In this document: positions 25,320 through 42,670 of the stretch, in pieces
Numbering within the stretch: position 1 is the first letter of the stretch
Layout of the letters: each line of letters opens with the position of its first letter
Source: an uncultured Candidatus Saccharibacteria bacterium
Lineage (GTDB): Bacteria; Patescibacteriota; Minisyncoccia; Phycocordibacterales; UBA12088
Direction: 5' to 3'
Length of the DNA stretch: 64,000 nt
Assembly: GCA_964567265.1 (NCBI GenBank)
Contig: CAZMLK010000001.1
Coordinates: 459,723 to 523,722 of the forward strand
Notes under the pieces: model-generated
Database searches by the model: none
What the model saw: the letters and a program-made list of their open reading frames with translations, nothing else
What the model was told of the DNA's origin: nothing
Position numbers and translations under genes: made by a program

Positions 25320-25348
25320 ATTATATACTAAAATGGTAATATTGTCAA
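25320..25348 (-). promoter_or_regulatory. Consensus sigma70-type promoter (TTGACA-N17-TATAAT) reading leftward into gene 24781-25275
   Basis: Minus-strand TTGACA at 25348-25343, a 17-nt spacer, TATAAT at 25325-25320, and AAGGAGG at 25287-25283. Confidence 0.5.
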
Positions 25349-25510
25349 ATAGGTTCGGGCGTCCGACTACTGTCCAAAAAATAAATAGCTCAAACAAAAA
25401 AGATTTTTACTGGCTCCCACGATGGAACGAGTTCCGAACCATACATTGGGCCGAATTATTCGAATTTCCTGAAGTTTCAATGGTTCAAATACAACAATTA
25501 ACTTCCGATG

Positions 25511-25909: not shown

Positions 25910-25927
25910 AAGATAATTATATCAAAA

Positions 25928-26941
25928 TTAAATATTAAATAAGGGACGGATGATCCCCAATCCTGCGAGACCAGCAAGGAGTGCAAAGATGCCGAGGCCG
26001 ATCACCACGATCCCTGCTGACTTGAAGAAAAGCGGAGCATGTTTTGAATGTGCAAACGACACCGAACCGAAGGAAAGGAGCGCGAGCATCGGCAGGGTTC
26101 CAAGCGCGAACGAGAGCATGATCAGAAGTCCCGAGATGAATGATCCGCTTGAAAGCGCGGCGACCTGCATCGCTTGCGTGAATCCACAGGGCAGGAAGAA
26201 TGTACCGATACCGATAAGTATTGGAGCGAAAGTCGAGTGCTCAATTTTTCTGAAATAAGCAAAGATGCCGGTTGGCAAAGCCACTTTGCTTTTCTTAATG
26301 ACACCTATGAGATTGAGTCCAAGGAGTATCATCACACTTGATGCGATGAGACCGAGAATCGCCGAAAAGGTAAAGCTGATACCGATTGCCTTGCCGACCA
26401 GCCCCAACACTCCTCCAAGGACTGCAAATCCGAAGAGTCTACCGCCATGAAAAAGCACAAACTGTTTTTTGCTCGTTTTAGTGCTTTCATCTTGTGCGAC
26501 TTTCGCAGAAAGGGAGAGAATTAAGCCACCTACAATCGCCAGACAGCTTGAGACAGACGCAATGAGACCGATGATAAAGCTCGTTGTCGGTGTTGTCGTT
26601 CCACCAATTCCGAGGTTTAAAATGCCTGATTTTTGTAATATGAAAAACAGGATTAAGAACGCGAGACCAATGGGTATCGCTTTCCAAATAATATCGTCAG
26701 ACTTCTTTTCTTGAATAATCTTCTCGACTGAAAGGGTGTAGCCGTTTGGTTTTATTTTGGCTGTGAGAAGTTGCGCAATCTCCTCGAGGTTTTGATTACT
26801 ATCGGTCTCAATGGTGACCGTTTCTTTTTTCAAGTCAACCTGCGATTTTTGAATGAATGGCTGTTCGTTCAAAACATCTTCAATAAGGATTTTGCATGAT
26901 GCACAGTGAGTGCCAGAAACATGGAATGTAAGTGTTTTCAT
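25928..26941 (-). CDS. Heavy-metal-associated (HMA) domain fused to a CcdA/DsbD-like thiol-disulfide transporter membrane domain
   Basis: N-terminal 'GTHCASCK' (MxCxxC-type HMA motif). The TM domain has 'VSSCLAIVGG' and 'FFLPCGFTQAM', the two CcdA cysteines. Confidence 0.7.
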   Translation of the reverse strand: MKTLTFHVSGTHCASCKILIEDVLNEQPFIQKSQVDLKKETVTIETDSNQNLEEIAQLLTAKIKPNGYTLSVEKIIQEKKSDDIIWKAIPIGLAFLILFFILQKSGILNLGIGGTTTPTTSFIIGLIASVSSCLAIVGGLILSLSAKVAQDESTKTSKKQFVLFHGGRLFGFAVLGGVLGLVGKAIGISFTFSAILGLIASSVMILLGLNLIGVIKKSKVALPTGIFAYFRKIEHSTFAPILIGIGTFFLPCGFTQAMQVAALSSGSFISGLLIMLSFALGTLPMLALLSFGSVSFAHSKHAPLFFKSAGIVVIGLGIFALLAGLAGLGIIRPLFNI

Positions 26942-26950
26942 AAGTTTGTT

Positions 26951-27853
26951 TTATATAACTGCATCAGGCTCCAATTTGCAGAAACGGCCTGTCCTATCTT
27001 TTTCGACCTGCAGGGTTGCGTGACCTATATGGAATCGCTCTCGTAATTTCTCTACCGCATCCTGTAAGACAGAGTCATCGACAACCGCCTCTGCTCTTAT
27101 AAGATGTGCGGTTAAACCTGTTTCTTTGGTGCTTATGCTCCAAATATGCAAGTCGTGAACTGCAACAACACCAGCAAGACCCTTGAGATATTTTTCAACA
27201 TCATCCCTATCAACAGATTCGGGAACCGCATCAAGTGATAGATTAAGAGATTCGCGCATGAGAGACCACGTGGTGAAAATGATCACAGCGGCAATGACAA
27301 TACTGATTACGGGATCAATCCATGCGAATCCTGTTAGCGTAATGAGTAAACCTGCAATGACTACTCCAAAAGAAACACCTGCATCAGCAGCCATGTGAAC
27401 AAATGCACCTCGAATATTGATGTCATTCTTTCGGCCTCTAAGAAACAGCAATGCGGTTACTCCATTGATAACGATACCAACGACCGCTACCCACATGACA
27501 GTACTACCCATAACATTCGCAGGAGCATTAAATCTATGCAAAGCTTCTACAAAAATTCCTCCAGCCGCTACAAAAATAAGAATTGCATTGAAAAGCGACG
27601 TGAGAATAGAACCTCGCCCAAATCCATACGTATGTTTTTTACTTGGTGTCCGAGTAGCAAACCAAATTCCCGCCCATGAAATGAGAAGTCCGAAAACATC
27701 AGTTGCGTTATGGATCGCGTCTGAAGTAAGAGCAAGCGAATGAGAGGCATACCCAAACCACAATTCGGTAATAACAAACAATATATTCAGAGCAAGCCCG
27801 ATAATAAAGGCCAGATTATAATTTTGAGTTTTATGAGAATGATCGTGCGCCAT
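26951..27853 (-). CDS. Cation diffusion facilitator (CzcD/ZitB-like) metal efflux transporter
   Basis: 'HSLALTSDAIHNATD' and 'HMAADAGVSFGV' are CDF signature helices, followed by a C-terminal cytoplasmic domain. Confidence 0.8.
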   Translation of the reverse strand: MAHDHSHKTQNYNLAFIIGLALNILFVITELWFGYASHSLALTSDAIHNATDVFGLLISWAGIWFATRTPSKKHTYGFGRGSILTSLFNAILIFVAAGGIFVEALHRFNAPANVMGSTVMWVAVVGIVINGVTALLFLRGRKNDINIRGAFVHMAADAGVSFGVVIAGLLITLTGFAWIDPVISIVIAAVIIFTTWSLMRESLNLSLDAVPESVDRDDVEKYLKGLAGVVAVHDLHIWSISTKETGLTAHLIRAEAVVDDSVLQDAVEKLRERFHIGHATLQVEKDRTGRFCKLEPDAVI

Positions 27854-27857
27854 AATA

Positions 27858-30167
27858 TTAGAGCTTTGTATTTTTAAGACGCAGCGAATTGGTTACGACC
27901 GTTACACTCTCGAATGCCATAATCGCTCCGGCAATAGCAGGACTTAGAGTCCAGCCAAAAAATGGAAAGAGAATACCGGCTGCGACAGGAATACCGACAG
28001 AGTTGTAGCCGAAAGACCAGATAAGATTTTGCCATATTGTTCGATTGGTCTTTTTTGCAAGATTCACGGCTTCGGCGACTTTGCCGATATCGCCTTTGAG
28101 AAGCACAATATCAGAGCTTTCAATTGCTATATCCGATCCGTCGCTCATTGAGATCGCAACATCTGCTTGTGTAAGAGCTGGCGAATCGTTCACTCCATCG
28201 CCAATCATTGCAACCTTGAAACCCTTCTTTTGAAGATCAGATACGATGTTTAACTTATCCTCTGGCTTCACATCGGCAAATACCTCGTCGATACCAAGCT
28301 CCCGCCCTACCGCATCAGCGGTTTTCCTGTGGTCGCCTGTAGCCATAATAACTTTGAGACCGAGAGATTTGAGTTTAGCGATTTCTGTTTTTGCTTCCGC
28401 CTTGATAGTGTCGTGAATTTTTACGAGCGAGAGCACTTCTTTGTCGTTTGCAAGATAGAGTTCGCGTCCGCTTTCAAATCGACCGTCGTGGAAATCTTTT
28501 CTAATCTGTTCCTCCGACTGCTTGATTACACCGCTCACATAAGCGATCGAGCCGAGGTAGTAGGACATATCTTGGTAGGAGGAAGTAAGGCCCTTTCCCG
28601 GTACTTCTTCAATATCAGAAATGTCAACACTTTTCGCTTTTGCGTCCTTGAGCCAATTTGCAATGCTTGCTGATATAGGATGCTTCGATGATTTCGTCAT
28701 CGAGTAGATGAGCGACTGCTTAAAGCTGGTATCCTCGATATCACAGACATGATTCTCGTCCTTACAAAATATTCCCTCGATGGACAGCTTGTTTTCTGTA
28801 AGCGTACCAGTCTTATCGAATACAATCGCACTTACCTTTGAAAGCTTCTCAAGACTCTCTGCGTTCTTGATGAGAATGCCACGACGCGCACCAGTACCGA
28901 CGCCGGTAATGATTGCAGTCGGAGTTGCGAGACCAAGCGAGCAGGGACAAGCAATCACCAAGACCGCCATAGTGGTAGAGATTGCTAGGGCGAACGCTTT
29001 TGTCATTCCAAATGTTCCCGGCGCAAATATCATCCATGAAGCAAATGTAATGACTGCAAGCACGAGCACAATGTATACGAAATAACCAGAAATCTTGTCG
29101 GCAATCTTTTCTATAGGTGCCTTTGAATTCTGGGCATTATCGACAATGCTAATGATGTGCGCGAGAGCGGTATTCTTAACATCTTTTTCAACCTGCACTT
29201 TCAATAGCCCCTGAAAATTCTGGGTCCCTGCAAATACCACGGCTCCTGATAACTTATCCACAGGCACTGACTCTCCGGTAAGATTAGACTCGTCAACGCT
29301 CGACGAGCCATAGATGACCTTACCGTCAACAGGGATCTGCTCGTTTGGCTTCACAATAACCACGTCGCCAACCTCAACTTTCTCAATAGGTATTTCGATC
29401 TCTTTTCCGTCTCGTTCGATCACAGCAAACTTACTGGTAAGTTGTGCGAGCTTTTGGAGAGCCTCGTTTGTCTTTTTCTTTGCTCGCGCTTCGAGGAACT
29501 GACCGAGGGCAATGAGACCTATCACTATAATAACGACATCATAAAAATTTGAACTAACATCCAGATATTTTGAAAGCGGTGCCTCGAAAGCTGTTACTGC
29601 AAGAGAGTATATAAATGCGACGATAGTCGAGATTCCAACAAGCACATCCATGTTGGCGATACCAGTACGCAAGAAAATCCAGGTAGCTTTGATATATCGC
29701 CGACCGATTCCAAAAAGCACAAAGCTCGCAAAGATCGGCATCAGATGATGGAAGAATTCGTAGATCGTTTCAGGCATTTTCGGGATGATGCCGTTATTGG
29801 ACAGAACATCCCAGAACATCATTACGAAAGAGAAAATAACCATTGGTATGACGAATTTCATTTCGAGGGCCATGTTCCTCACTCCGCTTCCCCTAGAGTG
29901 ATCCATGCGAGCATGATCCTCCGCAGACATATTCATTTCAGCAGCAGTTGTGGCTGTATCTTCAAACTCATAACCGAGGGGGGAAATCACGCTATTGAGA
30001 TTTTCTAACGGAAGCGGTGACGCAGAGAAAACCACCTTTGCTTTTTCATTACCCAAGCCAACCGATACCGACTCAACCCCCGGCACTTTGGCTATTTTGT
30101 TTTGAATAAGAGAGACACAGCTCGCACAGTGCATCCCTTTTACCTTGTATGTGTTTGCTGTAGTCAT
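27858..30167 (-). CDS. copA: Copper-translocating P1B-type ATPase
   Basis: N-terminal HMA 'GMHCASC'; 'CPC' in TM6 ('IACPCSLGLATP'); 'DKTGTLT'; 'GDGVNDSPAL'. Confidence 0.9.
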   Translation of the reverse strand: MTTANTYKVKGMHCASCVSLIQNKIAKVPGVESVSVGLGNEKAKVVFSASPLPLENLNSVISPLGYEFEDTATTAAEMNMSAEDHARMDHSRGSGVRNMALEMKFVIPMVIFSFVMMFWDVLSNNGIIPKMPETIYEFFHHLMPIFASFVLFGIGRRYIKATWIFLRTGIANMDVLVGISTIVAFIYSLAVTAFEAPLSKYLDVSSNFYDVVIIVIGLIALGQFLEARAKKKTNEALQKLAQLTSKFAVIERDGKEIEIPIEKVEVGDVVIVKPNEQIPVDGKVIYGSSSVDESNLTGESVPVDKLSGAVVFAGTQNFQGLLKVQVEKDVKNTALAHIISIVDNAQNSKAPIEKIADKISGYFVYIVLVLAVITFASWMIFAPGTFGMTKAFALAISTTMAVLVIACPCSLGLATPTAIITGVGTGARRGILIKNAESLEKLSKVSAIVFDKTGTLTENKLSIEGIFCKDENHVCDIEDTSFKQSLIYSMTKSSKHPISASIANWLKDAKAKSVDISDIEEVPGKGLTSSYQDMSYYLGSIAYVSGVIKQSEEQIRKDFHDGRFESGRELYLANDKEVLSLVKIHDTIKAEAKTEIAKLKSLGLKVIMATGDHRKTADAVGRELGIDEVFADVKPEDKLNIVSDLQKKGFKVAMIGDGVNDSPALTQADVAISMSDGSDIAIESSDIVLLKGDIGKVAEAVNLAKKTNRTIWQNLIWSFGYNSVGIPVAAGILFPFFGWTLSPAIAGAIMAFESVTVVTNSLRLKNTKL

Positions 30168-30172
30168 ATAGG

Positions 30173-30448
30173 TTATTTTCGCTTAAGTTTATAAACCTTA
30201 AGCACTTCATCTTTTGCCTTATTCGACTGACCCGTGGACATTTGATGATGAACGCAATGATCAAGGTGATTTTCTAATAAAATATCCTCCACATTTGAAA
30301 GTCCTTGTTTGACTGCCGATGTTTGAGTGATCACATTGATGCAGTACGTATCGCTCTCAACCATTTTTTGTAGTCCGCGCACCTGACCTTCAATCAGCTT
30401 GAGTCGGCGAATGACTTTCGCCTTACTTTTTTCGTCCATGTATTTCAT
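30173..30448 (-). CDS. csoR: CsoR/RcnR-family metal-sensing transcriptional repressor
   Basis: 'RRLKLIEGQVRGLQKMVESDTYCINVITQTSAVKQGL' and 'HLDHCV' give the Cys/His/Cys Cu(I) ligand pattern. Confidence 0.8.
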   Translation of the reverse strand: MKYMDEKSKAKVIRRLKLIEGQVRGLQKMVESDTYCINVITQTSAVKQGLSNVEDILLENHLDHCVHHQMSTGQSNKAKDEVLKVYKLKRK

Positions 30449-30457
30449 ATAACAATA

Positions 30458-30475
30458 ATACCCCCTAGGGGGTAT
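30458..30475. promoter_or_regulatory. Perfect 18-bp GC-rich palindrome ATACCCCCTAGGGGGTAT, 10 bp upstream of the csoR start; candidate CsoR operator
   Basis: It resembles known CsoR operators (TACCC..GGGTA-type dyads) and sits at the head of the csoR-copA operon. Confidence 0.5.
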
Positions 30476-30524
30476 ATGTCAAATGAAAATAGTAAAGTCT
30501 GAAGTGGAAGAGTATGATTAGCTC

Positions 30525-33326
30525 ATGGCTAAGTACAGTCGCGCTAAAAGAATCGAAAAACAGGAAGTGGGAATACTGGAGACTCTCCTGAACGCCCATC
30601 CTCTGCTCACGCAACTCACTAAAGGAGACGATGATTTCCCGCTTATCGATGGATACGTCCATTTACTCAAAGAGCAAGACGAGGTGGATGGGAATATGCT
30701 CAAAGTGCAGGTAAAACCCCTCAAGATCAACAAGGATGGCACACTCTCCGCGACATGTAGCACCGACCTTTTGAGTCACGCGCACGGCTCCTCTATACCC
30801 GTCCTTTTGGTCGCGGTGAATCCGGACGAGCAGATCGCGTACTGGATGTATCTCGCGCCTGAGGCCGTGAAGACCCAGTACGAAGCGCAGATCGCGGCCG
30901 GTAAGAAGACGATCACCTTTCGACTGAATAAAAGTAATGTCATCAAAAAAGGTACCGATAAATATATCGCGGAGTGGAAGCGCATTTGCGGTCATCATCG
31001 GAACACTTCGAACGATCGCCTTGCCGGTAGATACAAAAAACGCATCAAGAAAAATCTCATAACAGCGAATGAGGACACTTTACTCGAACGGATTCGGACT
31101 CTACACGACCTCGTATACTACCGAACGAATAAAGGCGAGTTCCCACTAGTGGAGATCGTGCTCGAGATGGCGCGTACGATCGGTGGCACTTCTGCGTCCG
31201 TGAAGATCGCGTATATCGAGTTGCTTGAGCAACTCATTCACGACAAGACGTCCGAAGCTCTGGAGGTAATCACAAAACTCGCGTCCGATGAGAGCGAGCA
31301 AGTTCGAAGGAAAGCAGCGGAAACATTGAAGAACGCCGCGAAATACAACTACCATTGGCTCAATGCTATCGGTTACGGTCCGTACCGCACCATGCTCAAC
31401 TTTCTCGAGAGCCATGATGTTCCGTCAGAGATCGCGCACGAGATGTTCCGTAACCTCCTTACCCCCGATTTCGACGGCACTTCGCAGACAGACATGTACA
31501 CGCTTACTTTTCACCGCGGTGCGCTGGACGCAACAAAGTTCCTCAAAGATCTTCGTCATGATGCAATAAATCTCCTAACTAAGCGATATGAGACGACAGA
31601 TACGATTCGCGAGAAAAGTAAAATCGTGGATACGCTTGGCTATGCAACCCACAAGACCGACTGGCCGACCGGTGATCCCGACTTCATCCAAAGGTCTGTA
31701 GATATGGTCGAGGCCGACACTCAGCTTGTTGTTGCAGCATATAAAAAGATCCTTTTCCCAAAAGGCAAAATGATCTCTGACTATCCGGTAATCTACGAGA
31801 TCGAGACACAGGTATCGATCTTGAACACGAGAGAGCGCAAGATCGCAGGCGTTGACGAGCTGCTTCAACAGATCCGCGAGGACAAGGGCGACTATCGATT
31901 GTTTAGCTTACTCGCCGGAGACGAGATGCGTTTGCGCCGCGACGTTGAGTGGCAAGAGGGGCGAAAGCAAAAAGAAGAGGAGATCAAGGAGATCCTCGAT
32001 TCGATCACGGAAGAAAATGCTGACGACTGGTACAAGCGCATAGACACCATCGCCAACTTTCGAGAGTGTATCGAAGACTGGCTCTATCAGACACTACGAG
32101 ACTTTCTCGCACAAATCGCAGAAAAGAAACCGGCAGTAGCTGCCATATTTGCAAAGCTCGCGCTCAAAAATAAGACAGGCCTGTATTTCTTTTTTCGTGG
32201 CATACTCTGGGGTCTTCGGAAAGGTTCACTCGAGCAGTGGGATGACCATGTTGAATACATTGCGAAGCATCGCCTCACAGATCAAATAGACGGGATCCTC
32301 ATGTCGTATTTCTCGATAGGAGGAACCGAACTATCCGCCGCCAAACTTCGCAAAGAAGATATAGCGCTTACCATTGAGATTGCGAAGAAAGAGGGGCGCT
32401 TTGCTTTCCTAAAGGGTTCAGAGATGAACCGCGCGCTCGAGTATCATTCGATCCGATCGCTCACATTTCTCTCAACGTTGGATAAAGCCGTTCGAAAAGC
32501 GCTGATCGAAAAAATAAAAGAGTACCCCGAACTAGACACCATGTACTCTAACGAACTCGGTTTTGCCCTGCATTGCAAATGGATCAAGTTGGATGAATGG
32601 GATCGACCAGATCTCGAAGCGCTTGCGGAGATGCTCGTAAACATAAAACGTCTCGATCACTACGAGATGCAAGTTCTTCACGAGCTGGGTATCTTTGACT
32701 TTGATCTAATGATGTCTGTGTTTGAGCGCCGTATAAAACATCCCTACGATAGTGGCTACGACGCAATCCCGTATCACATAGAGGCCGGTGTCGCGGCATT
32801 CATACGCGACGATCCTCGCACCAAAGACGTTGTCCGACGCTGGCTCGAAGAACGCAATCCCGATCAAGACGGGATGATCGGCTATCACTTAGGCGAGTTT
32901 GTGAATCGCATAGGAGGCACGGTGCTACGCGAAGCTCTCTCGGAGTTGATCGCTACTGGCAAGAAAGAAAACATCCTCAAGGTAATGGAAATGTTGCCTA
33001 TTTCTGATCCGGCAGACCCCTCCCTGTGTCTTGAGATCGTGGCCGCAACGGATGACAAGCAAATCTTGGCTAGAGTCGACGCACGGATGCGACAGACCAG
33101 TGGTGGCACCGGCTCCGTCGGCGAAAATATCTTCGCGCGGGAGATGCGCAAAAACCAAGCTCGTATCGAGGAAATAAAGTCGAGAGCGACGAATCCCAAG
33201 ATCGTAAAGTTCTGTGAGAAAGTACTTGCCAACCTTACACAGGACATCGCGAGATCCGATCGCGAGCATGAGCGAGAAATGCGGGAAGAACGAAAAGAAT
33301 ACGACGAGGAACACGACCTCGAATAA
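30525..33326 (+). CDS. Large (933 aa) protein: N-terminal DUF4365-like PD-(D/E)xK nuclease-fold domain, then a long HEAT/ARM-like alpha-helical region
   Basis: The N-terminus 'DDFPLIDGYVHLLKEQDEVDGNMLKVQVKP' fits the DUF4365 'D.ID.....(Q/E)VK' pattern. Later 'SEQVRRKAAETLKNAAKYN' and repeated helical hairpins follow. No P-loop. Confidence 0.65.
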   Translation: MAKYSRAKRIEKQEVGILETLLNAHPLLTQLTKGDDDFPLIDGYVHLLKEQDEVDGNMLKVQVKPLKINKDGTLSATCSTDLLSHAHGSSIPVLLVAVNPDEQIAYWMYLAPEAVKTQYEAQIAAGKKTITFRLNKSNVIKKGTDKYIAEWKRICGHHRNTSNDRLAGRYKKRIKKNLITANEDTLLERIRTLHDLVYYRTNKGEFPLVEIVLEMARTIGGTSASVKIAYIELLEQLIHDKTSEALEVITKLASDESEQVRRKAAETLKNAAKYNYHWLNAIGYGPYRTMLNFLESHDVPSEIAHEMFRNLLTPDFDGTSQTDMYTLTFHRGALDATKFLKDLRHDAINLLTKRYETTDTIREKSKIVDTLGYATHKTDWPTGDPDFIQRSVDMVEADTQLVVAAYKKILFPKGKMISDYPVIYEIETQVSILNTRERKIAGVDELLQQIREDKGDYRLFSLLAGDEMRLRRDVEWQEGRKQKEEEIKEILDSITEENADDWYKRIDTIANFRECIEDWLYQTLRDFLAQIAEKKPAVAAIFAKLALKNKTGLYFFFRGILWGLRKGSLEQWDDHVEYIAKHRLTDQIDGILMSYFSIGGTELSAAKLRKEDIALTIEIAKKEGRFAFLKGSEMNRALEYHSIRSLTFLSTLDKAVRKALIEKIKEYPELDTMYSNELGFALHCKWIKLDEWDRPDLEALAEMLVNIKRLDHYEMQVLHELGIFDFDLMMSVFERRIKHPYDSGYDAIPYHIEAGVAAFIRDDPRTKDVVRRWLEERNPDQDGMIGYHLGEFVNRIGGTVLREALSELIATGKKENILKVMEMLPISDPADPSLCLEIVAATDDKQILARVDARMRQTSGGTGSVGENIFAREMRKNQARIEEIKSRATNPKIVKFCEKVLANLTQDIARSDREHEREMREERKEYDEEHDLE

Positions 33327-33342
33327 AATAAGTTTCTAGGTA

Positions 33343-34080
33343 GTGCCGTTAAAAATGAAAATGCAAATTAAGCCAATTTACGATGCAAAGTACTATAGAG
33401 TACAGGAGATCTCCGCCCACCCTGGCTTTTTGAATGACGTAAAAAATTTACTTAATTCATTCTCCACTTTTGGATGCCCAGTGCCCAAAAAAGGTTTTAG
33501 AAAATACTCGGAGTTTGATGCCTGGCAAAAGAAGTTATGGAAGAAGTACGATTATTATGTACGTAAAACCGGAGTTCAGGAAGACTTCCCAATAGTCGTA
33601 TATGGCCAAACAATAGATAAAATTCTGATGAGACACGGCCTTGATCCAAAAAATAAAGATGATAAATATTGGATTGAGCAATTCGTTTTCTTTAAGAAAA
33701 AAGAATTCGAAAAACCACTTGCTTTCATCAGGTACATACCGCCAATCGCAAATAAAGATCCTGAACTTTGGATAAGGTATTTTGGACACACCAAACCATC
33801 AGACATCAAGGTAGAAAAAATATTGGAATATCAAAAATTACTCCCGGACTATAGAGGCAAAAATAAACCCAAGGATAAAAAGATACTTAAAAGAAATAAG
33901 ATTGTCGTCGAGTTATATCTTAAAGAGAGAGAAAAAAGTCGTGGAGATATTTATGCACGTGAACGTAGCATCAAGGGGCAATCAATATCCCAATTTGTCG
34001 CTAATAAACTACATAAAAAGTACCCTGAATTAAACAAAGTTTTGGTAGAGCAGATTGTAAAAATGCAGCCTGAAAAATAA
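33343..34080 (+). CDS. Lys-rich hypothetical protein (245 aa), 17 bp downstream of the DUF4365/HEAT gene
   Basis: Very AT-rich ORF with no recognisable motif. A terminator hairpin follows. Confidence 0.5.
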   Translation: MPLKMKMQIKPIYDAKYYRVQEISAHPGFLNDVKNLLNSFSTFGCPVPKKGFRKYSEFDAWQKKLWKKYDYYVRKTGVQEDFPIVVYGQTIDKILMRHGLDPKNKDDKYWIEQFVFFKKKEFEKPLAFIRYIPPIANKDPELWIRYFGHTKPSDIKVEKILEYQKLLPDYRGKNKPKDKKILKRNKIVVELYLKEREKSRGDIYARERSIKGQSISQFVANKLHKKYPELNKVLVEQIVKMQPEK

Positions 34081-34119
34081 ACTCAAGGATAAAAATAAGC
34101 TTAACTGCATCCCATTCCT

Positions 34120-34151
34120 AAAACGACTAGCATAAACATGCTGGTCGTTTT
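34120..34151. terminator. Rho-independent terminator
   Basis: AAAACGACTAGCAT-AAAC-ATGCTGGTCGTTTT (one mismatch). Confidence 0.55.
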
Positions 34152-34155
34152 GATT

Positions 34156-34410
34156 ATGGAAATGAAAATTAAAAAAACAAATAAGACATATCAAACCGCA
34201 GACATGGCATGTGCTGCGGCTCTTTCGCTTTTCTTTCCAATAGAAGCAATAGACCGCACATCGGAGCGAAGGGTTTTCTTCATTTTTGAGAGCACAGAAA
34301 AATTGGATCAATTCGTGCAGATGTTTTGGCGTGGAGAGGTTCAGCTCGAACCAAGGGCATTTTTCGACAGCATAAAGGCGATCAAAACTCGGCTGTACGA
34401 CCAAATTTGA
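34156..34410 (+). CDS. DUF5659-like small protein (phage/CPR-associated family)
   Basis: 'YQTADMACAAALSLFFPIEAIDRTSERRVFFIFESTEKL...FFDSIKAIKTRLY' fits the DUF5659 pattern. Confidence 0.45.
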   Translation: MEMKIKKTNKTYQTADMACAAALSLFFPIEAIDRTSERRVFFIFESTEKLDQFVQMFWRGEVQLEPRAFFDSIKAIKTRLYDQI

Positions 34411-34412
34411 CC

Positions 34413-34628
34413 ATGTTAGCGAAGGAAACCATCGATGAGCTATCTGTGATCCTCCGAGAGGAATTCGGGGCCGATTTAACGGATGTAGAGGCGTATGAGG
34501 TAGGCACTTCTCTGGTGGGCCTTTTTGATCAATTAAGTGAGTTGGATCGGAAGGATAAACAACTAAAGGAGGTGAAGGACGCAAAAAAGAATGAACATGA
34601 AAAAACTGAGCTACATAAAACTATATAG
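34413..34628 (+). CDS. Small hypothetical protein (71 aa)
   Basis: ATG 3 bp after the previous stop; no motif. It overlaps the next ORF by about 38 nt. Confidence 0.3.
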   Translation: MLAKETIDELSVILREEFGADLTDVEAYEVGTSLVGLFDQLSELDRKDKQLKEVKDAKKNEHEKTELHKTI

Positions 34629-35064
34629 ACCGGAACTAGCTCGGCTCACAAAGAGCCTAAGCGAACGAGAAATTACACTTTTCTTAACCCTTGTATCGCA
34701 CGCCGGTTGGGATCCCAGACACAAAGACCATTATTCAAAAATAAATAAAACCCTTCGCGAAATTCAACAGGAATACCTTCCGGAATGGTCATTAGGAAAG
34801 GTGCATGACGTAATAACCGCCTTAAAAGATAAGGGGTTTATCGAAGTAGCTAGTAAAAGAACTTTTCTAATTAATTATCTGTGGCTCTACACTGCAACTC
34901 AAAAAACAATACAGGCAATTCTTTCTAATCCTGAACATTCTGCTCACTTACCTAAACAAATATTTCAGAATTCCGAACAGTCTGTTCGAACCGGTGAACA
35001 GCTAAACTTTCGAAATAAACTCAAAGATCTTGCGGAAAGCAAGCGTTTGCCTCGCGGCCCGTAA
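34591..35064 (+). CDS. Hypothetical protein
   Basis: AT-rich ORF; no motif. Confidence 0.4.
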   Translation: MNMKKLSYIKLYRPELARLTKSLSEREITLFLTLVSHAGWDPRHKDHYSKINKTLREIQQEYLPEWSLGKVHDVITALKDKGFIEVASKRTFLINYLWLYTATQKTIQAILSNPEHSAHLPKQIFQNSEQSVRTGEQLNFRNKLKDLAESKRLPRGP

Positions 35065-35276
35065 TTTCTTGTTCATTTTCTCGAACAAATTGCTCACGTA
35101 AAGAAATTAAAAAAACTAAATAAAAATAAACATGAAAATAAACCAACGACGCGCAAAAAAGATTGTTAAAGCTTTCACGGCATTTCTCGATTCTCAATAC
35201 AGAGAAACCTTGAGTCAAAGCATTAAAAGAGGGATCGCACGAAAGCGATCAGCGACGCTTAGACACAATAAATAAT

Positions 35277-35762
35277 ATGAAAATAGATAAAAATCCCCTC
35301 TACACAATCACTAAAAAGGAAATCCAAGAAATAGCCTCGGAAAGGATCGAACGATACCTAACTGAAGACGAGATTGAAGAGGTTATATACAAAATCAACG
35401 TGGAAGTAGTGAGGGTAATGCCGGAGGCTATCGAGGAAATAAACGAGTTTAGTGAATTGTGCTCTAGAGATATTGGGAAGATTAAAGCAACTCCAAGATA
35501 CGAGATTTACTGGAAAAACGACAACGCCTTCCAAAACACCCTCGTATTTACGTATACGTTTACAGACGAGGAAGATGCTAGAGCATATGTAGATCACGAG
35601 TACTGGGACGCAGGCGCTGAATACAAAATAGAAAAGGTCGATAACGAAAATCGAGAACTGATCGTTCATCACAAAAACCCACTAAACGGAGGGGATGGTT
35701 TCCATATGGACGTCCATAATGAGCCAAAAGACACCCAAAACGCCAAGGCTCTGAATTTCTAA
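35277..35762 (+). CDS. Hypothetical protein
   Basis: AT-rich ORF, acidic; no motif. Confidence 0.4.
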   Translation: MKIDKNPLYTITKKEIQEIASERIERYLTEDEIEEVIYKINVEVVRVMPEAIEEINEFSELCSRDIGKIKATPRYEIYWKNDNAFQNTLVFTYTFTDEEDARAYVDHEYWDAGAEYKIEKVDNENRELIVHHKNPLNGGDGFHMDVHNEPKDTQNAKALNF

Positions 35763-35763
35763 T

Positions 35764-36087
35764 ATGAAGTACTCGCGATATCAACGCTCTCTCCATATCG
35801 AAAAAGTTGCAACGATTCTACGAAGCGATCTGACGTTAAGTGCTAGAGCTGTGTTCAGGATTCTGAACGAGCAAGGACAGCATTTGAGTCGATCGTATGT
35901 GAATCAAGTAGTTGCTTACGCTCTTTCAAGAATCGGGGATGAGGAACGTAGAAAACGAATTGGTGCACAAGAACACGCCGAGTGGATCCAAAAAGTAATG
36001 GTCGTAAGTGAAGAGTTAGAGATCTTAAAGAAGAAACTTGACTCCCTGATTTGGTCTTATCCAGAGGATTTTGAGCCTAGGTATTGA
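35764..36087 (+). CDS. Hypothetical protein (possible small DNA-binding protein)
   Basis: It starts 2 bp after the previous gene; no firm motif. Confidence 0.35.
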   Translation: MKYSRYQRSLHIEKVATILRSDLTLSARAVFRILNEQGQHLSRSYVNQVVAYALSRIGDEERRKRIGAQEHAEWIQKVMVVSEELEILKKKLDSLIWSYPEDFEPRY

Positions 36088-36283
36088 ATTCCAATTATTT
36101 ATGAAAAGCGCTATACTTAATTTGCGACCTACGGTTTTGAATATCTGCACAGGGTATTTGCCTTTTTGTGGCTCCAATTGCGGGCTGAAAGGGGCAGCTA
36201 TCCTCCACAATTGGTTGCCTTGTGCAATTCAAGACTGTGGGTCGCAGGCTCTGGCTGTCCCTTTTTGTATTTCAGCCTGCGAC

Positions 36284-36829
36284 ATGGATAAGTTTAAAAA
36301 AGAACTAAAAAATGCATTTAAACTGCTCTCGATCTTTGTTATCGGGATACCAGTCTTTCTCGCTGCTCTTTATGGTTTCGCATCGCTCATGGCCAATAAT
36401 TCCAATGCTCCGGATGTAAATAAGGGGGTCATATCATTCATCTGTTCAAAACAAGAAGGCGCGAAAAACATTTCTTACTACCTCGTTAATACAGTCAGCG
36501 CAGTAGATCAAACAATTCAATTTTCAAATCCGTTACGCGACGTCGCAGTTCAGATGTCACGCATTTCTAATAAGGGAGGTTGGGATACTCAATCGCTCTG
36601 CACTCCAAATGTTATGGATTTACCGGAGGCGGAGTGGCAGACGCTTTCGATAGGATCAGACTGTGGCGTAGGGGCATCTATTTCCGCATGTGATGCAGAG
36701 ACAATTACAACCTCTAACGGCGTACAGATAATACGGTTGTTTCCTCTTGTGAACGGACTATATTCTGGAACCGCTGGATCTATAAAGAAAGGGGCGCTGA
36801 TCAAAATCACGGGTGTCTCCAAGAACTAA
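36284..36829 (+). CDS. Membrane-anchored hypothetical protein
   Basis: Internal ATG (MDKFKK) followed by a TM helix. Its stop sits 2 bp before the recombinase ATG. Confidence 0.4.
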   Translation: MDKFKKELKNAFKLLSIFVIGIPVFLAALYGFASLMANNSNAPDVNKGVISFICSKQEGAKNISYYLVNTVSAVDQTIQFSNPLRDVAVQMSRISNKGGWDTQSLCTPNVMDLPEAEWQTLSIGSDCGVGASISACDAETITTSNGVQIIRLFPLVNGLYSGTAGSIKKGALIKITGVSKN

Positions 36830-36830
36830 T

Positions 36831-38408
36831 ATGAAAGCAGTACTTTACGCACGAGTATCATCAAAGGATCAAGAGGAGCACGGCTACTCTCTTTCATCGC
36901 AACAAATGTTCCTTAAAGAATATGCGCAAAGAAAAGATCTTGAAGTGAATAGCAAGTGCATTTTTTCCGTATCAGAATCAGCAAGTTCGCGTAAGCAACG
37001 CGGAGTTTTTGCAGAAATGATGGCATACGCAATTAAGCATGACATAAAAGATCTTATCTGTGAGAAAGCCGATCGAATCACTCGTAATTTTAGAGACATG
37101 GTCGCTATCGATGACTGGCTAGAGGAGGATGATCAGAGACGCGTACACCTAGTCAAAGATAGTTTAGTAATGCATAGAAACTCGAGATCACAGGAAAAAT
37201 TAAACTGGGCAATTCGAGTAGTTTTTGCAAAAAATTACACAGACAATCTCTCGGAAGAAGTTAAAAAAGGACTCGCTGAAAAGTTGAGACAAGGATGGCT
37301 TCCAACAAAGCCTCCGGTTGGATACAAAACAATAGGAGAAAAAGGACGCAAGATTCACGTTATAGATGAGGACAAGGCTCCGCTAGTCAGAAAAATGTTT
37401 GAGCTGTATTCAACCGGCAATTACGGCACAGATACACTTGCAGAAATGATGTTCAAAGAAGGTCTCCGAAATGCGGGAGGCAAAAGAATATATAAGTCTC
37501 GCGTCGCAGTGCTTCTAACGGATCCGTTTTACATTGGCAAAATTAGGTACAACGACGCAATCCACAGAGGTGCACACGAGCGTCTAATCGGCGACGAATT
37601 ATTCGAGATAGTCCAAGGAAATCTAAAAGGAAATGGTGCTCCTCGATATCGACGCCACTCTCCGACATTCAAGTCGCTCATAAAGTGTGAGGAATGTGGC
37701 GGGTCGGTGACGTGGGAGATTCAGAAAGGACATTGGTATGGGCATTGCAATCGCTACAGAGAGTGCACTCAAAAGAAGTTTGTTAGACAGGAAAGGATTG
37801 AAGAGCAACTCCTGCCTTACTTGGATGAAATAACAATCAAAAATCCTCGTGTTCTCGAGTGGGTAAAGAAAGCCATGAAGGAAAGCCATGCTGATGAGAT
37901 AGCTTATAGCTCCTCCGCTCGGGATGAACTCAACAAACGATTTGAGTCTGTTCAGCGCCGCCTTGAGGCGCTCTACGACGATAAGCTGGATGGAAAGATT
38001 CCAGAAGACTTCTACCAAAGAAAATTTAAACAGTTCACTGAGGAGAAAGATCAGATCATTTCGGCGCTAAAAAGACACGACGGAGCAAATACGAAATACT
38101 ACGAACTCGGATCTAACGTGCTAGAACTTGCTCAAAGGGCAAAGGAGATCTATCTGAATGAAAATAGAACCGCCGACGAGAAAAGAATTCTCTTACGTTT
38201 AGTTTTTTCGAACCTCGTAATAAATGTAGATAAACTAACGGTTTCCTATAACAAAGCCTTCCAGATCCTTAGTACCTACTCGGGTATGTGGAATAAGAAA
38301 TTCGAACCGGAGGATAATGGCTCTGATAAAAGACAAAAAGGCACTTCCGTGCCTTCTCGTCCTATTTTGCTCCGGCGCCTGGATTCGAACCAGGGACCAA
38401 CGCGTTAA
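36831..38408 (+). CDS. Large serine recombinase (integrase)
   Basis: 'AVLYARVSSKDQ' resolvase-type catalytic Ser motif, a recombinase domain, a zinc ribbon 'CEECGG...C..C', and a coiled-coil C-terminus. The last codons ('LLRRLDSNQGPTR') translate the tRNA 3' end. Confidence 0.85.
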   Translation: MKAVLYARVSSKDQEEHGYSLSSQQMFLKEYAQRKDLEVNSKCIFSVSESASSRKQRGVFAEMMAYAIKHDIKDLICEKADRITRNFRDMVAIDDWLEEDDQRRVHLVKDSLVMHRNSRSQEKLNWAIRVVFAKNYTDNLSEEVKKGLAEKLRQGWLPTKPPVGYKTIGEKGRKIHVIDEDKAPLVRKMFELYSTGNYGTDTLAEMMFKEGLRNAGGKRIYKSRVAVLLTDPFYIGKIRYNDAIHRGAHERLIGDELFEIVQGNLKGNGAPRYRRHSPTFKSLIKCEECGGSVTWEIQKGHWYGHCNRYRECTQKKFVRQERIEEQLLPYLDEITIKNPRVLEWVKKAMKESHADEIAYSSSARDELNKRFESVQRRLEALYDDKLDGKIPEDFYQRKFKQFTEEKDQIISALKRHDGANTKYYELGSNVLELAQRAKEIYLNENRTADEKRILLRLVFSNLVINVDKLTVSYNKAFQILSTYSGMWNKKFEPEDNGSDKRQKGTSVPSRPILLRRLDSNQGPTR

Positions 38409-38442
38409 CAGCGCGCTGCTCTACCGCTGAGCTACACCGGAA
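38371..38442 (-). tRNA. tRNA-Asn (anticodon GTT)
   Basis: Hand-folded cloverleaf on the minus strand. Acceptor TCCGGTG/CGCCGGA; D-arm GCTC-AGCGGTA-GAGC; anticodon stem GCGCG/CGCGT with loop CTGTTAA; T-arm CCTGG-TTCGAAT-CCAGG; discriminator G; CCA not encoded. Confidence 0.8.
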
Positions 38443-38540
38443 TACGGGCATTCTAGCCAATATGCCCCCAGATTGCAATGTGACTTTCCGGGGCCGGACA
38501 AAAGAAAACAGGCTCCCGTAGGAGCCTGTAAGTGTGGCCT

Positions 38541-38665
38541 CGCTTTTGCGAGTGTTTGTGTCCCGCGCAAGCGCTGGGAAGATTTCCCGGTCACTTAGTG
38601 ACTCGAGAAGAATGTACGTGTCTGCTTTTGCAGATCTTTGTGCCCGCGCAAGCGCTGGGAGTGCA
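38541..38665. repeat. Two imperfect ~49-bp direct repeats, each with a 5-bp hairpin plus a 'TTTGTG(T)CCCGCGCAAGCGCTGGGA' box, upstream of tRNA-Asn
   Basis: Copy 1 at 38541-38589 and copy 2 at 38617-38665. The hairpin CTCGC-TTTT-GCGAG (copy 1) versus TCTGC-TTTT-GCAGA (copy 2) shows three compensatory pair changes. Confidence 0.4.
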
Positions 38666-38682
38666 ACTGAAGGGATGTGGAG

Positions 38683-39183
38683 TTAGTGACGCTCGCCATA
38701 CGGTTTGCCGCGCACATGCGCAGCCGTTGAACCGCCAGGCTGCCGGTGCTTTGCTCCGCCGCGTTCGGCACGGATTCGGCGACCAGAACCGTTTACTGGA
38801 TCGACTGGTCCCGTTTGACCCGTCGTCGCTAACCGCGCGAAAACATTTTCGCCGGGGTCGGGCGGAGGAGGCGTGTCGAGATCGACATCTTCCCGCTCGA
38901 GGTATGCGGGGATGATCGTTTCGCGGGCAACTTCGCCCTCGACTCCTTCGGCTACGAGTACCGCGTCAGCTGTCTCTTCGGCAGGCGTGAAACGGGTCTC
39001 GACGCCGATCGGATACTTGGCCCGATGTCTCCACCTGACGATCAGGCGGATTCCAACACCGACGATTGCGGCGACCAGTGCCACGCCGACACATACCTGC
39101 CACGAGAGCTTCAGATACATGCCAATCACAAGCGCAATCAGAAGTGCCGTGACGAGCACGACATTAAGTGCAGCTGTTGCCAT
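38683..39183 (-). CDS. Hypothetical small membrane protein (3' extent uncertain)
   Basis: Two N-terminal TM helices; the remainder is low-complexity. Confidence 0.3.
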   Translation of the reverse strand: MATAALNVVLVTALLIALVIGMYLKLSWQVCVGVALVAAIVGVGIRLIVRWRHRAKYPIGVETRFTPAEETADAVLVAEGVEGEVARETIIPAYLEREDVDLDTPPPPDPGENVFARLATTGQTGPVDPVNGSGRRIRAERGGAKHRQPGGSTAAHVRGKPYGERH

Positions 39184-39197
39184 TTACTCCCCCTTTC

Positions 39198-40376
39198 TCA
39201 GGAAGTGGCGTTGGCAGCTGACGGCCGGAAACGCCGGAAGCCAGCAATCATCGCATCGGTAGACCGGTAGGCAAGCATGCCGACCAGAAGTGCGACCAGA
39301 AACAGTACGATGCCGCCCGGATGCGCATTTGCGAAATCAATCGCGGATGCCATCCAGTTGTTCAGCTTGATGGCCGTGTACGCACCCCAATTGTCGAGGC
39401 TCGCAACGGTCGTGTTGAGGCTATTGATAGTGGCCTCCTGCGTTCCGAGCATATGGTTCAGCGAGCTGATAGTGCCATCGCGTTCGGCGGTCACTGCTTT
39501 TGCGGCAGCTAAGTCGAGCGATGCCTGCTTCATGGCTGCATTGAAGTTACGTTCCGCCTCCGCGAAACGTACCTGTGCTGCGTCGATGTCTGCTTGAGCC
39601 TGGTTCCGAGTGGCAGTAATGGTCGCGGTCGCGTTCTCCTGTACGCGTGCGACTTCGAGTCTGCTTACCTCTGCCCGCTTGGCGAGCGCGACCTGTACGG
39701 CTGCGTCGATTGCGGCCTGCGGGTCTACGAGCCGGGCATTCAGATCCCGGACTTGCCGTTCGAGTTCGCCGATCTGCACATCCTTGTTCAGGATCTGGAT
39801 CTCGAGCCCGGCTTCGCGTCCAAGGTTGGACGAGGCTGATGCGGACACGCGAGCGGGAGTGCTCGCGAGCTGTTCTTTCAGGTCTGTGATTTCTGCCCGG
39901 GCAGCGTCGAGTCTCTGCTTCAGCATGCTGTTTTCGACGACGAGCGCGGAGTTGTTGCCGGATGCGACATCCAGATTCACGCCGCCATTCGAGGCGACGA
40001 CGAAGTCCTGGAACTTCCCGCGGTCGAGTGGAAAGAGGTATACCTCGTTCGCCTTGTAACCGACGCGTGAGAACTCGGCATATTCGTCCCAGCCCATGTA
40101 CGGAAACTGTCCGTGCCAATGGGATCGCAAGCACGATTGTGCGGTCTCGCCTTGTGCCAGGAAATCCTGGCGCGCGGCAAGCTCACAGAAACGAGTAGGA
40201 TTGGTCTTCAGGTTTCCGAATTCCACCGGCACGAATGCGCGGAGGACATCTTCGGAAGGCCTCCCGGGACCGCTAAGGCCCTCGGGAGCCACTTGGAGCG
40301 CGTTCGCAGGATTCCCTGCGACGCCCGCAAGCAACAGGGCGACGAGCCCGGCGAGAAACGCCTGTGTACCCTTCAT
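39198..40376 (-). CDS. Secreted coiled-coil protein with a C-terminal TM anchor
   Basis: Signal peptide, a long Ala/Gln-rich heptad region, and a C-terminal TM helix. Confidence 0.5.
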   Translation of the reverse strand: MKGTQAFLAGLVALLLAGVAGNPANALQVAPEGLSGPGRPSEDVLRAFVPVEFGNLKTNPTRFCELAARQDFLAQGETAQSCLRSHWHGQFPYMGWDEYAEFSRVGYKANEVYLFPLDRGKFQDFVVASNGGVNLDVASGNNSALVVENSMLKQRLDAARAEITDLKEQLASTPARVSASASSNLGREAGLEIQILNKDVQIGELERQVRDLNARLVDPQAAIDAAVQVALAKRAEVSRLEVARVQENATATITATRNQAQADIDAAQVRFAEAERNFNAAMKQASLDLAAAKAVTAERDGTISSLNHMLGTQEATINSLNTTVASLDNWGAYTAIKLNNWMASAIDFANAHPGGIVLFLVALLVGMLAYRSTDAMIAGFRRFRPSAANATS

Positions 40377-40543
40377 CTAAGCCATCCTTTTCAGTTGTCA
40401 GATAACACTGACACGTGCGGGTGCACGTGCTCTGCCCCCAGTCATACTACATTTTTCGGCATGAAGCAAGGGTGAGTGTCGCGTTCGGTTTCTCCCCGTT
40501 TCCCTTTTCTCTCAAGAGTGCACATCGTTCATACTATGGATAT

Positions 40544-41170
40544 ATGTTCGGACTTGATCGGGAGGAAATGAAGGTCATGCGGTCGCTTTCGACGCCTTCA
40601 AAAATCCACGATTTCCTCGATACCCTTCCGGTGAATTGGGAAAAGAACGGAGACACCATCATGTCGCCGCGAAGAGTGCTTCGGGAACGGAAAGCGCACT
40701 GCCTCGAAGCCGCACTCTTCGCGGCGACCGCGCTCTGGATCCACGGCGAGGAGCCGCTCATCGTCGATCTCTCCCCGCTCCCCATCGACGACGGGCACGT
40801 GATCGCGATCTACAAGCGGCGCGGCCACTGGGGCGCGTTCAGCAAGACCAACCACGGCACCATCCGCTCGCGCGATCCGGTGTACCGGACCGTGCGCGAG
40901 CTCGCCGTTTCGTATTTCCATGAGTATTTCATCAACGAGACCGGGCAGAAGACGCTCCGTACGTACACCAAGCCCTTCAACTTGAAGCGTCTCGACACGG
41001 AATGGATTACATCGGAAGAGAATCTCGACCACATCAGCCTCGCGCTCGACGAGCTCACGCACTATCCCTTCATCCCGCGCGGCAACGAGCGACTCATACG
41101 GAAAGCGCACAAGACCGAGCGCGAAGCTGGAAGCGTCATCGAATGGGAGCGGAGCGACCCTCGTACGTGA
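40544..41170 (+). CDS. Predicted papain-like / transglutaminase-like cysteine-peptidase-fold protein
   Basis: Candidate Cys-His-Asp triad: 'AHCLEAALFAATALW' ... 'DDGHVIAIYKRRGHWGAFSKTNHG'. Confidence 0.4.
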   Translation: MFGLDREEMKVMRSLSTPSKIHDFLDTLPVNWEKNGDTIMSPRRVLRERKAHCLEAALFAATALWIHGEEPLIVDLSPLPIDDGHVIAIYKRRGHWGAFSKTNHGTIRSRDPVYRTVRELAVSYFHEYFINETGQKTLRTYTKPFNLKRLDTEWITSEENLDHISLALDELTHYPFIPRGNERLIRKAHKTEREAGSVIEWERSDPRT

Positions 41171-41183
41171 TATTCAAGGATCG

Positions 41184-42440
41184 CTAGATCGGACCCTGTT
41201 CGGAGGGCAGGCGGCTTTCGGCGATCATCGATTCGATGCGCATCCTGCGCGCGCCCGCGCGAAGCAGCTCGGTGAGTGTCGTCACTTCGATCGGCTTCGT
41301 CAGATGGTAGTCGAATCCCGAATCCCTGCTCGCAGTGCGATCGACTTCCTGCCCCCAGCCCGTCGTCGCCGCAAGCAGGATGTCGCCGCCCCACGGATGG
41401 CGGCGGATATGGTTCGCGACTTCGTAGCCGTTCATGCCGCGCATGCCGATGTCGAGAAGGACCACGTTCGGCCGGAAGAATTCCACCGTCTCGAGTGCTT
41501 CCTGCCCGTCATAGACGGTGCGCACATCGTGCCCCAGCCGGCCGACGATCTTCCCCATGCCCTGGGCCGCATCCTCGTTGTCATCAACCACGAGCACGCG
41601 GAGCGGCGTGTGTGCGTCCTGCTCGTACGCTTCCTCGCTGTCATTCCCTATCGGCGGCTTCTGGTGGATCGGGAGCCGTATCGTGAAGGTGCTTCCCTTT
41701 CCAAGGCCCGGACTTTCGGCCATGATGCTGCCTCCATGGAGTCGGATGATCCGTTCCGCGCGATGCAGGGAGATTCCAAGTCCCTCGACGCGGCTGTCGA
41801 GAACATTGCCGACGTCTGCATGCATCCGGAAAATGCCGTGGAGTTTTTCCGGGCTCATGCCCTCTCCGCTATCACGGATGATGATGGTCGCCTCGGTAGT
41901 GGTATATGAGATCGAAAGCCAAATGCGTCCACCGCGCTCAGTGAAGCAGCTCGCATTCCGGAGCAAGTCCCCGATGACCTGCCCGATGCGCTCGGAGTCA
42001 CCCTCTATATATGCGGCTTCGGCGGGCATGTCTACGAACAGCGTCTGCTCAAGCGCTTCTATCTCCGCGCGCGCAGTCGCGATCCCGAGATCGACTGCTG
42101 ATCGAATCGAGACTGATGCGGCCCGGTGGAGCGCGAAGGTGTTATCGGAAATCTGGGAGATATCGATAAGGTCATCCACGATCCTGCCGAGGTGGTTCGT
42201 CTGGCGGTCGATCATCGTGATCGCCGAGCGGAGCGGCGGCTCAAGAGTGCGGAGATGGAGGAGATCGACTGCGCTCCGTATCGGAGCGAGCGAATTGCGG
42301 AGCTCATGCGCCAGGCGAACCAGGAATTCCTCGGTCACGACCGCACGCGCTAGCTCAGGCCGTACGAGATCAACACCTCCATCCGGAGGCACGACAGCCG
42401 AGAGATGATCCGTCTTGCTCTTTTTTTCTAGCTTTTTCAT
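41184..42440 (-). CDS. Hybrid sensor histidine kinase / response regulator
   Basis: HisKA 'LAHELRNSLAPIRSAVDLL'; HATPase_c 'IIIRDSGEGM...GLGISL'; C-terminal REC 'LRVLVVDDNEDAAQGM...VLLDIGMRGMNGYEVA'. Confidence 0.8.
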   Translation of the reverse strand: MKKLEKKSKTDHLSAVVPPDGGVDLVRPELARAVVTEEFLVRLAHELRNSLAPIRSAVDLLHLRTLEPPLRSAITMIDRQTNHLGRIVDDLIDISQISDNTFALHRAASVSIRSAVDLGIATARAEIEALEQTLFVDMPAEAAYIEGDSERIGQVIGDLLRNASCFTERGGRIWLSISYTTTEATIIIRDSGEGMSPEKLHGIFRMHADVGNVLDSRVEGLGISLHRAERIIRLHGGSIMAESPGLGKGSTFTIRLPIHQKPPIGNDSEEAYEQDAHTPLRVLVVDDNEDAAQGMGKIVGRLGHDVRTVYDGQEALETVEFFRPNVVLLDIGMRGMNGYEVANHIRRHPWGGDILLAATTGWGQEVDRTASRDSGFDYHLTKPIEVTTLTELLRAGARRMRIESMIAESRLPSEQGPI

Positions 42441-42670
42441 AAGAGTATGGTATTCCCCGTTACTATCTCTCCAGCGTCGCACGGGCCAGATGAAGGAATA
42501 GTGAGCGAACATGAAGCTCCCGCGACCTCGCTGCTCCGTTCATATTCCATTCATCGGCACTTCGATATACTGGACCTTGAGAAATCGCTGCTGCTACCGA
42601 ATGGAAGCCATTAATGAGCACGCAGCGGTTTTTCATTTGGATATTTTCAGTTACCTTTCAAGGATTTGTG

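Follow-up and report, generated by a model that had tools for sequence, protein, structure and literature searches.

CpxQ and SroC of the enterobacteria are small RNAs derived from 3' UTRs, which share the intrinsic terminator of the mRNA, and the REP/BIME elements are extragenic palindromes that act as stabilisers of mRNA 3' ends. In the type III antitoxin RNAs ToxI, CptI and TenpI, an intrinsic terminator comes after direct repeats of about 35-45 nt, and at tRNA-linked islands the tyrosine integrases use arm-type sites. To our knowledge, almost no regulatory RNAs have been described in bacteria of the candidate phyla radiation, and we know of no established Hfq or ProQ chaperone in Patescibacteria; when the literature was searched for structured RNAs of this group, nothing relevant came up. 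The two-copy repeat described here was found beside a tRNA-Asn gene in the window (the whole stretch of DNA analysed, 64 kb in length). We give about an even chance to the reading in which this repeat is the duplicated, structured 3' UTR of a minus-strand operon, or a small RNA from that 3' UTR, in either case specific to its lineage.

Inspection of the repeat revealed two exact copies of an 18-nt box, CCCGCGCAAGCGCTGGGA, placed on the plus strand at 38562-38579 and 38643-38660, that is, 81 nt apart. When up to three mismatches are allowed, the box occurs twice in the 64-kb window, against 0.12 occurrences expected from shuffled sequences. On the plus strand every box is preceded by TTTGTG(T), and this in turn by a hairpin with a 5-bp stem and a 4-nt loop (hairpin B), which reads CTCGC-TTTT-GCGAG at 38539-38552 and TCTGC-TTTT-GCAGA at 38621-38634. 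The repeat copies are about 85% alike, with differences at about 15% of the positions. As duplex DNA the box is a near-palindromic 19-bp site, TCCC(A)GCGC-TT-GCGC-GGGA, and on the minus strand it is predicted to fold as CCC-A-GCG[CUUG]CGC-GGG. The parts of the repeat, in the minus-strand order, are the following:

38660-38621, minus strand: distal module (box, CACAAAGA, hairpin B)
38643..38660, minus strand: distal box, minus-strand reading UCCCAGCGCUUGCGCGGG, predicted 3+3-bp hairpin with a bulged A and a CUUG loop
38643..38660, minus strand: distal box in its alternative pairing, one strand of a predicted long-range helix with the proximal box
38635..38642, minus strand: distal CA-rich linker CACAAAGA, predicted single-stranded
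38621..38634, minus strand: distal hairpin B, UCUGC-AAAA-GCAGA (in the sister locus L129, CCUGC-AUAA-GCAGG, a compensatory difference)
38585..38608, minus strand: middle hairpin UCUCGAGUCAC-UAA-GUGACCGGGA, 10 bp with a bulged A
38579-38539, minus strand: proximal module (box, ACACAAACA, hairpin B)
38562..38579, minus strand: proximal box, identical in sequence to the distal box
38553..38561, minus strand: proximal CA-rich linker ACACAAACA
38539..38552, minus strand: proximal hairpin B, CUCGC-AAAA-GCGAG

In the ungapped register, both sides have changed at three of the five stem pairs of hairpin B between the copies and every cell is paired. The two-copy repeat with differing yet paired stems, as the initial annotation had described it, is confirmed in positions and sequences. 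A gapped alignment adds ACAC(G/T)TACA, for a repeat length of about 49-54 nt, and the stem differences of hairpin B can then also be read as compensated indels instead of three substitutions; the 5-bp stem is retained under both readings. The middle hairpin occupies in the distal unit the place that an intrinsic terminator occupies in the proximal unit. An octamer, TTAGTGAC (minus strand GTCACTAA), is seen twice, at 38595-38602 in the middle hairpin and at 38683-38690 at the stop codon of the neighbouring 166-aa ORF, which hints that the ancestral duplicated unit perhaps took in the end of this ORF.

The genes and signals surrounding the repeat are all placed on the minus strand:

39198-40376, minus strand: 392-aa ORF, first gene of a two-gene unit
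38683..39183, minus strand: 166-aa ORF, last gene of the two-gene unit, a predicted membrane protein with no Pfam domain
38498..38529, minus strand: intrinsic terminator, a 9-bp stem ACAGGCUCC-UACG-GGAGCCUGU followed by UUUCUUUUGU, -18 kcal/mol
38450..38478, minus strand: sigma-70-like promoter of tRNA-Asn, TTGCAA-17-TAGAAT, context outside the repeat
38369..38441, minus strand: tRNA-Asn (GTT), detected by ARAGORN and Rfam, context only

Along this strand the order is the stop codon of the 166-aa ORF, the distal module (22 nt downstream of that stop codon), the middle hairpin, the proximal module, the terminator, the promoter and tRNA-Asn. The repeat is placed about 98-220 nt from the 5' end of tRNA-Asn, upstream in the sense of the tRNA; counted upstream from the -35 hexamer, the end of the proximal copy is at 60 nt and the proximal box at about 85 nt. 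The initial annotation had located the repeat in the promoter-proximal region upstream of tRNA-Asn. Its position upstream stands, in the minus-strand sense of the tRNA, but it is not promoter-proximal, since the terminator and the promoter-like site intervene and the former would insulate the repeat from the tRNA promoter. A role as an element of that promoter, also put forward there, finds no support, as the -35 hexamer lies at least 60 nt downstream of the repeat and beyond a strong terminator with a 9-bp stem and a U-tract. The only promoter-like site in the region 38000-39500 is the tRNA-Asn promoter, downstream of the terminator, and L129 likewise shows no other; the modules, with no detectable promoter of their own, would therefore be co-transcribed with the 166-aa ORF. 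In the protein encoded by this ORF the N-terminal transmembrane segments and a basic C-terminal tail (about 35 aa) are conserved around a hypervariable middle. Two small ORFs over the repeats (57 and 58 aa) were considered as coding candidates and rejected: one would cross the terminator and the promoter and enter the tRNA, and L129 has 1-nt indels there.

On the other side of the tRNA, a 13.7-kb insertion (24680-38364) adjoins the 3' end of tRNA-Asn, where a low-GC segment also ends (about 0.44 vs 0.56). The insertion carries the following genes:

36813-38408, plus strand: large serine recombinase with Resolvase, Recombinase and Zn_ribbon_recom domains
30525-33326: 933-aa DUF4365/HEAT protein, island gene
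27858-30167: copper P-type ATPase, island gene
26951-27853: cation-efflux protein, island gene
25928-26941: DsbD_2+HMA protein, island gene
25511-25909: cupredoxin-like protein, island gene

A CsoR-like repressor is also encoded in the island, and metal-resistance genes are among its cargo. Comparison with L129 by blastn matched positions 1-12138 of that locus to window positions 50370-38365, and positions 13284-16030 to 24679-19821; at the place of the island L129 has a 1.1-kb segment with an SLFN_AlbA_2 gene. The absence of the island from L129, and the presence of the SLFN_AlbA_2 gene at the same tRNA, mark this tRNA as an integration hotspot. A direct repeat of a tRNA fragment was searched for at the far end of the island and not found. 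The last 13 or so codons of the recombinase ORF and its stop (38369-38408) run antisense through the 3' half of tRNA-Asn, so the recombinase frame spans the junction between island and tRNA. Directly after the tRNA, at 38332-38361 on the minus strand, there is a hairpin with a T-tract (AAGGCACGGAAGTGCCTT then TTTGTCTTTT) that looks like a terminator for the tRNA, though it lies on island DNA, inside the recombinase ORF. About 3 kb beyond the island boundary at 24680, a 266-aa ORF (20989-21789, minus strand) has a weak match to TIR_2 (E 4e-4, below the Pfam cut-off).

The repeats themselves, at 38539-38660, lie outside the island, on the core-genome side of the tRNA. Arm sites for the recombinase had been a further suggestion of the initial annotation. 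We know of no large serine recombinase that uses arm-type sites, and the repeats are conserved in L129 without the island; the class of the recombinase and the position of the repeats together rule out arm-type att sites.

L129, from the sister genome in SRR31757426, belongs to the single other species in which this locus was found, by homologue searches of the 392-aa and 166-aa neighbours. Homologues of the 392-aa protein form only three clusters, of which one lies on a contig of 1.9 kb that stops at the gene, and those of the 166-aa protein form two. Between the window and L129 the neighbour proteins are 75% and 65% identical over the aligned residues, and the orthologue of the 166-aa ORF is 46 aa longer (212 aa). 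Both modules, the middle hairpin, the terminator and the promoter are retained in L129 in the same order, the promoter TTGCAA-17-TAGAAT being 100% conserved and the terminator conserved with two changes that form G-U pairs. The intergenic stretch of 241 nt shows 90.5% identity, compared with 73-75% (about 16 points lower) at the four-fold degenerate sites of the two flanking genes, a neutral baseline that is itself uncertain because nearby genes span 0.55 to 0.88 in their four-fold-site identity. The differences that tell the linkers of the two copies apart are common to both species, and the duplication is thus older than the species split.

Across 38683-42512, four-fold-site identity to L129 goes from 0.55 in a hybrid histidine kinase gene (41184-42512) to 0.88 in a 208-aa gene, a spread that suggests either a mosaic or recombinant past or a constraint that is very uneven. 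The product of the latter gene (40544-41170, plus strand) has no Pfam domain and is 98% identical in L129, vs 65-85% for the adjacent proteins. Its 1395 homologues, which come mostly from MAGs named Patescibacteria or Parcubacteria, make it a widespread uncharacterised family, and on the strength of this one protein the source of the window, a metagenome contig from Logan SRR16481186, is probably a member of the Patescibacteria. In the three next-closest relatives that were checked, the gene is no longer syntenic with tRNA-Asn.

A closer look at the substitutions showed how they are distributed over the predicted RNA. From the stop codon to the U-tract, the window and L129 differ by 16 substitutions, 10 of them in loops or linkers and six in helices. 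None of the six breaks a pair on the minus strand, whereas, read on the plus strand, these helices would lose one pair in the window and three in L129. When the 16 substitutions were placed at random, with the mix of transitions and transversions held, all pairs stayed intact in 0.3% of 100,000 placements (P about 0.003), a test in which the helices are defined on the window sequence and tested by L129 alone. The shuffle control of the covariation test is uninformative with two sequences. Distal hairpin B has undergone a double compensatory change from U-A in the window to C-G in L129, and the four other helix substitutions are one-sided, with G-U pairs gained or lost (two each in the middle hairpin and the terminator). 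Both interspecies substitutions of the middle hairpin are U-A/U-G exchanges, which keep the pairing on the minus-strand RNA only. The G-U pairs that speak for the minus strand are those of the middle hairpin and the terminator; every pair of the box and of hairpin B is Watson-Crick and strand-neutral, and for the distal and proximal modules we infer both the strand and the fact of transcription.

Across the four module copies (two in the window and two in L129), three of the five pairs of hairpin B have changed on both sides and 100% of the cells are paired, compared with 21-61% in slid controls; three pairs changed between paralogues and one between orthologues. The helix of the box and its bulged A are invariant in the same four copies, with a single change in the loop (CUUG to CAUG, in the distal copy of L129). 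Hairpin B looks constrained in shape alone, and the box in sequence. The paired stems in four copies, the exchange of U-A for C-G and the lack of any broken helix uphold the view that selection acts on a hairpin, as opposed to a chance likeness, with a covariation signal that is thin because only two species carry the locus.

The minus-strand fold of 201 nt has a z-score of -5.9, and hairpin B has a fold energy of -6 to -8 kcal/mol. A self-complementary box in two copies also allows one box to pair with the other. ViennaRNA favours this long-range helix at equilibrium, giving it a probability of 0.58 in the window and 0.93 in L129, and the local hairpins 0.08 or less. The invariant boxes offer zero covariation with which the local and the box-to-box folds could be separated. 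There is a small probability that the two boxes form a two-state RNA domain, switching between local CUUG-loop hairpins and a box-to-box helix around hairpin B and the middle hairpin, and that they belong to a lineage-specific small RNA with a regulatory or protein-sequestering role. Such a domain would put each base of the box under a four-way constraint, which would account for boxes that stay unchanged next to a hairpin B that changes.

In the reading as a 3' UTR, to which about an even chance was given above, the two copies would stem from the tandem duplication of a unit of about 82 nt in the 3' UTR of the operon of the 392-aa and 166-aa ORFs. From the stop codon at 38683 to the terminator at 38529-38498, the transcript would form a box hairpin, a CA-rich linker, hairpin B and the middle hairpin, and then the second box hairpin, its CA-rich linker, hairpin B and the terminator. 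The structure of this RNA would be under purifying selection, acting on RNA pairing, and the sequence of the box would be held by a factor that reads it or by the need for box-to-box pairing. The repeat is placed as a 3'-UTR element would be: on the coding strand it comes after the stop codon and before the terminator, and the promoter-like site is found only downstream. Conservation is above that of the four-fold sites, and the substitutions preserve the structure (in two species). The stable structured 3' end may protect the operon mRNA and/or be released as a small RNA of about 185 nt that binds a protein, for which the two-fold site would suit a dimer. We infer transcript stabilisation or protein binding as the probable role. 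Among the options offered by the initial annotation, a small RNA survives as the best fit to the anatomy.

The combination of one sequence-constrained hairpin with one hairpin constrained in shape only suggests a specific binding partner. If transcribed, the element would be a new structured RNA of very narrow distribution, in a little-studied lineage that is probably one of the Patescibacteria. As the evidence stands, it adds one more case to the conserved structured 3' UTRs, known from two species and unlinked to the expression of the tRNA or to the integration of the island, and the main value of the analysis is the corrected context, namely the strand, the intervening terminator and the boundary of the island.

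The rival explanations rank by weight as DNA operators, neutral duplication, plus-strand terminators, a REP-like family and, last, a mini-CRISPR array or type III antitoxin. In the first of them, which we consider unlikely, the boxes would be duplex-DNA operators, 81 bp apart, through which a dimeric regulator acts on the promoter of tRNA-Asn or on the upstream operon at its end. The box is nearly palindromic, several two-component regulators are encoded nearby, and the box has remained invariant in four copies bar one central base while hairpin B drifted, a total invariance that fits a double-stranded DNA binding site equally well. However, the dyad is asymmetric, with an extra A in every copy, and about 85 nt, the terminator included, separate the proximal box from the -35 hexamer downstream. 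A protein reading the sequence would leave unexplained that hairpin B keeps its shape without its sequence, and the compensatory changes of hairpin B, together with the G-U exchanges of the middle hairpin, point to single-strand pairing.

Equally unlikely, in our judgement, is a repeat that is the neutral remnant of an ORF-distal tandem duplication, with the species too close for decay and no function beyond that of a 3' UTR. The comparison comprises two species only, against a neutral baseline as heterogeneous as 0.55-0.88, and some of the neighbouring coding DNA is equally or more conserved (95-100% over 40200-41150). Against this stand an intergenic identity some 16 points above the four-fold sites of the flanking genes and a duplication that predates the species split, as the common copy-specific differences indicate. 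The stems, moreover, have been kept through changes on both sides, and none of the six helix substitutions breaks a pair (P about 0.003).

It is very unlikely that the plus strand is the functional one, with hairpin B and the following UGUUUGUGU or UCUUUGUG serving as a weak intrinsic terminator or as part of an antisense RNA. Such a terminator would stop transcription from the tRNA-linked hotspot that runs antisense into the operon, and in the window the recombinase gene of the island does read toward the repeat; in L129, however, the gene beside the tRNA points away from it. Hairpin B with its T-rich tail was flagged as terminator-like once in the window and in both copies in L129, but the stems have 5 bp only (-6 to -8 kcal/mol) and the U-tracts are interrupted. 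On this strand the middle and the large hairpins would have A-C mismatches, and the next downstream plus-strand gene starts only at 40415.

The box is an imperfect palindrome with a bulge, in intergenic DNA flanked by co-directional genes, which would suit a dispersed family of extragenic palindromes (REP- or MITE-like) with two copies here by chance. We consider this highly improbable, on searches that took in the 64-kb window of the source genome, beyond which a few dispersed copies may lie. A covariance model was built from the four module copies of the window and L129, the kind of search that the initial annotation had proposed; run over the 64-kb window with filters off, and over about 109 kb in ten related loci, it returned the known copies, in L129 and in the window's own locus, and none beyond them. 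The exact 18-nt box was found at 57 genome and 70 metagenome loci in unrelated taxa, always as a single match. Most of these loci are apparently coding, and several represent one coding context that recurs in unrelated taxa. The TTTGTG flank or the hairpin accompanied the box in none of the 57 genome and 70 metagenome loci, in two collections outside which the source lineage evidently lies; the matches are therefore chance or coding ones. A degenerate pattern of the module gave no match in viral contigs, nor did blastn in distant mode against plasmids and phages. With Rfam 15 at gathering thresholds, the tRNA alone passes in the whole window, and at E<=10 in 38300-38900 the other matches are due to the terminator hairpin and reach 15-20 bits where the cut-offs are 50-55.

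Scarcely credible, and largely ruled out, are the readings as a mini CRISPR array of two repeats or as an antitoxin RNA of type III with ToxI-like repeats and a terminator. Although repeats of about 41-49 nt recur with a period of 81-82 nt, every unit closes with a hairpin of 5-bp stem and 4-nt loop and a terminator follows, both readings fail on their defining features: the repeats are about 15% different, with compensatory differences, the units are not contiguous, the two species share a conserved, structured 'spacer' of about 40 nt, no cas, TnpB or ToxN-like gene was seen among the called genes within 10 kb on either side or in the larger ORFs scanned, and what comes after the terminator is a tRNA with its own promoter in place of a toxin ORF.

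Compared with the described systems, the locus shares with arm-type sites the presence of short direct repeats near the tRNA of an integration site, but here the recombinase is a large serine recombinase and the repeats lie on the core side, beyond the tRNA promoter, where they persist without the island. As in ToxI, CptI and TenpI, direct repeats are followed by an intrinsic terminator; unlike in those RNAs, a structured spacer of 38-40 nt separates the repeats, and a promoter and a tRNA follow, with no toxin gene. The likeness to REP/BIME lies in imperfect, GC-rich, bulged palindromes present in more than one copy at the locus, in a 3' UTR between co-directional genes. The copies here are direct, whereas those of REP/BIME alternate in orientation, no RAYT-type transposase was seen, and there are no dispersed copies in the window or the related loci. 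Unlike CpxQ and SroC, the repeat has no known processing site, seed or target, and its internal tandem duplication with a sequence-invariant, self-complementary box sets it apart from typical small RNAs of 3' UTRs. With that class it shares its place between the stop codon and the terminator of an operon, on the same strand and without a promoter of its own, a conservation higher than that of synonymous sites, and several hairpins joined by short single-stranded linkers. It is a new and narrowly distributed instance of an ordinary kind of element.
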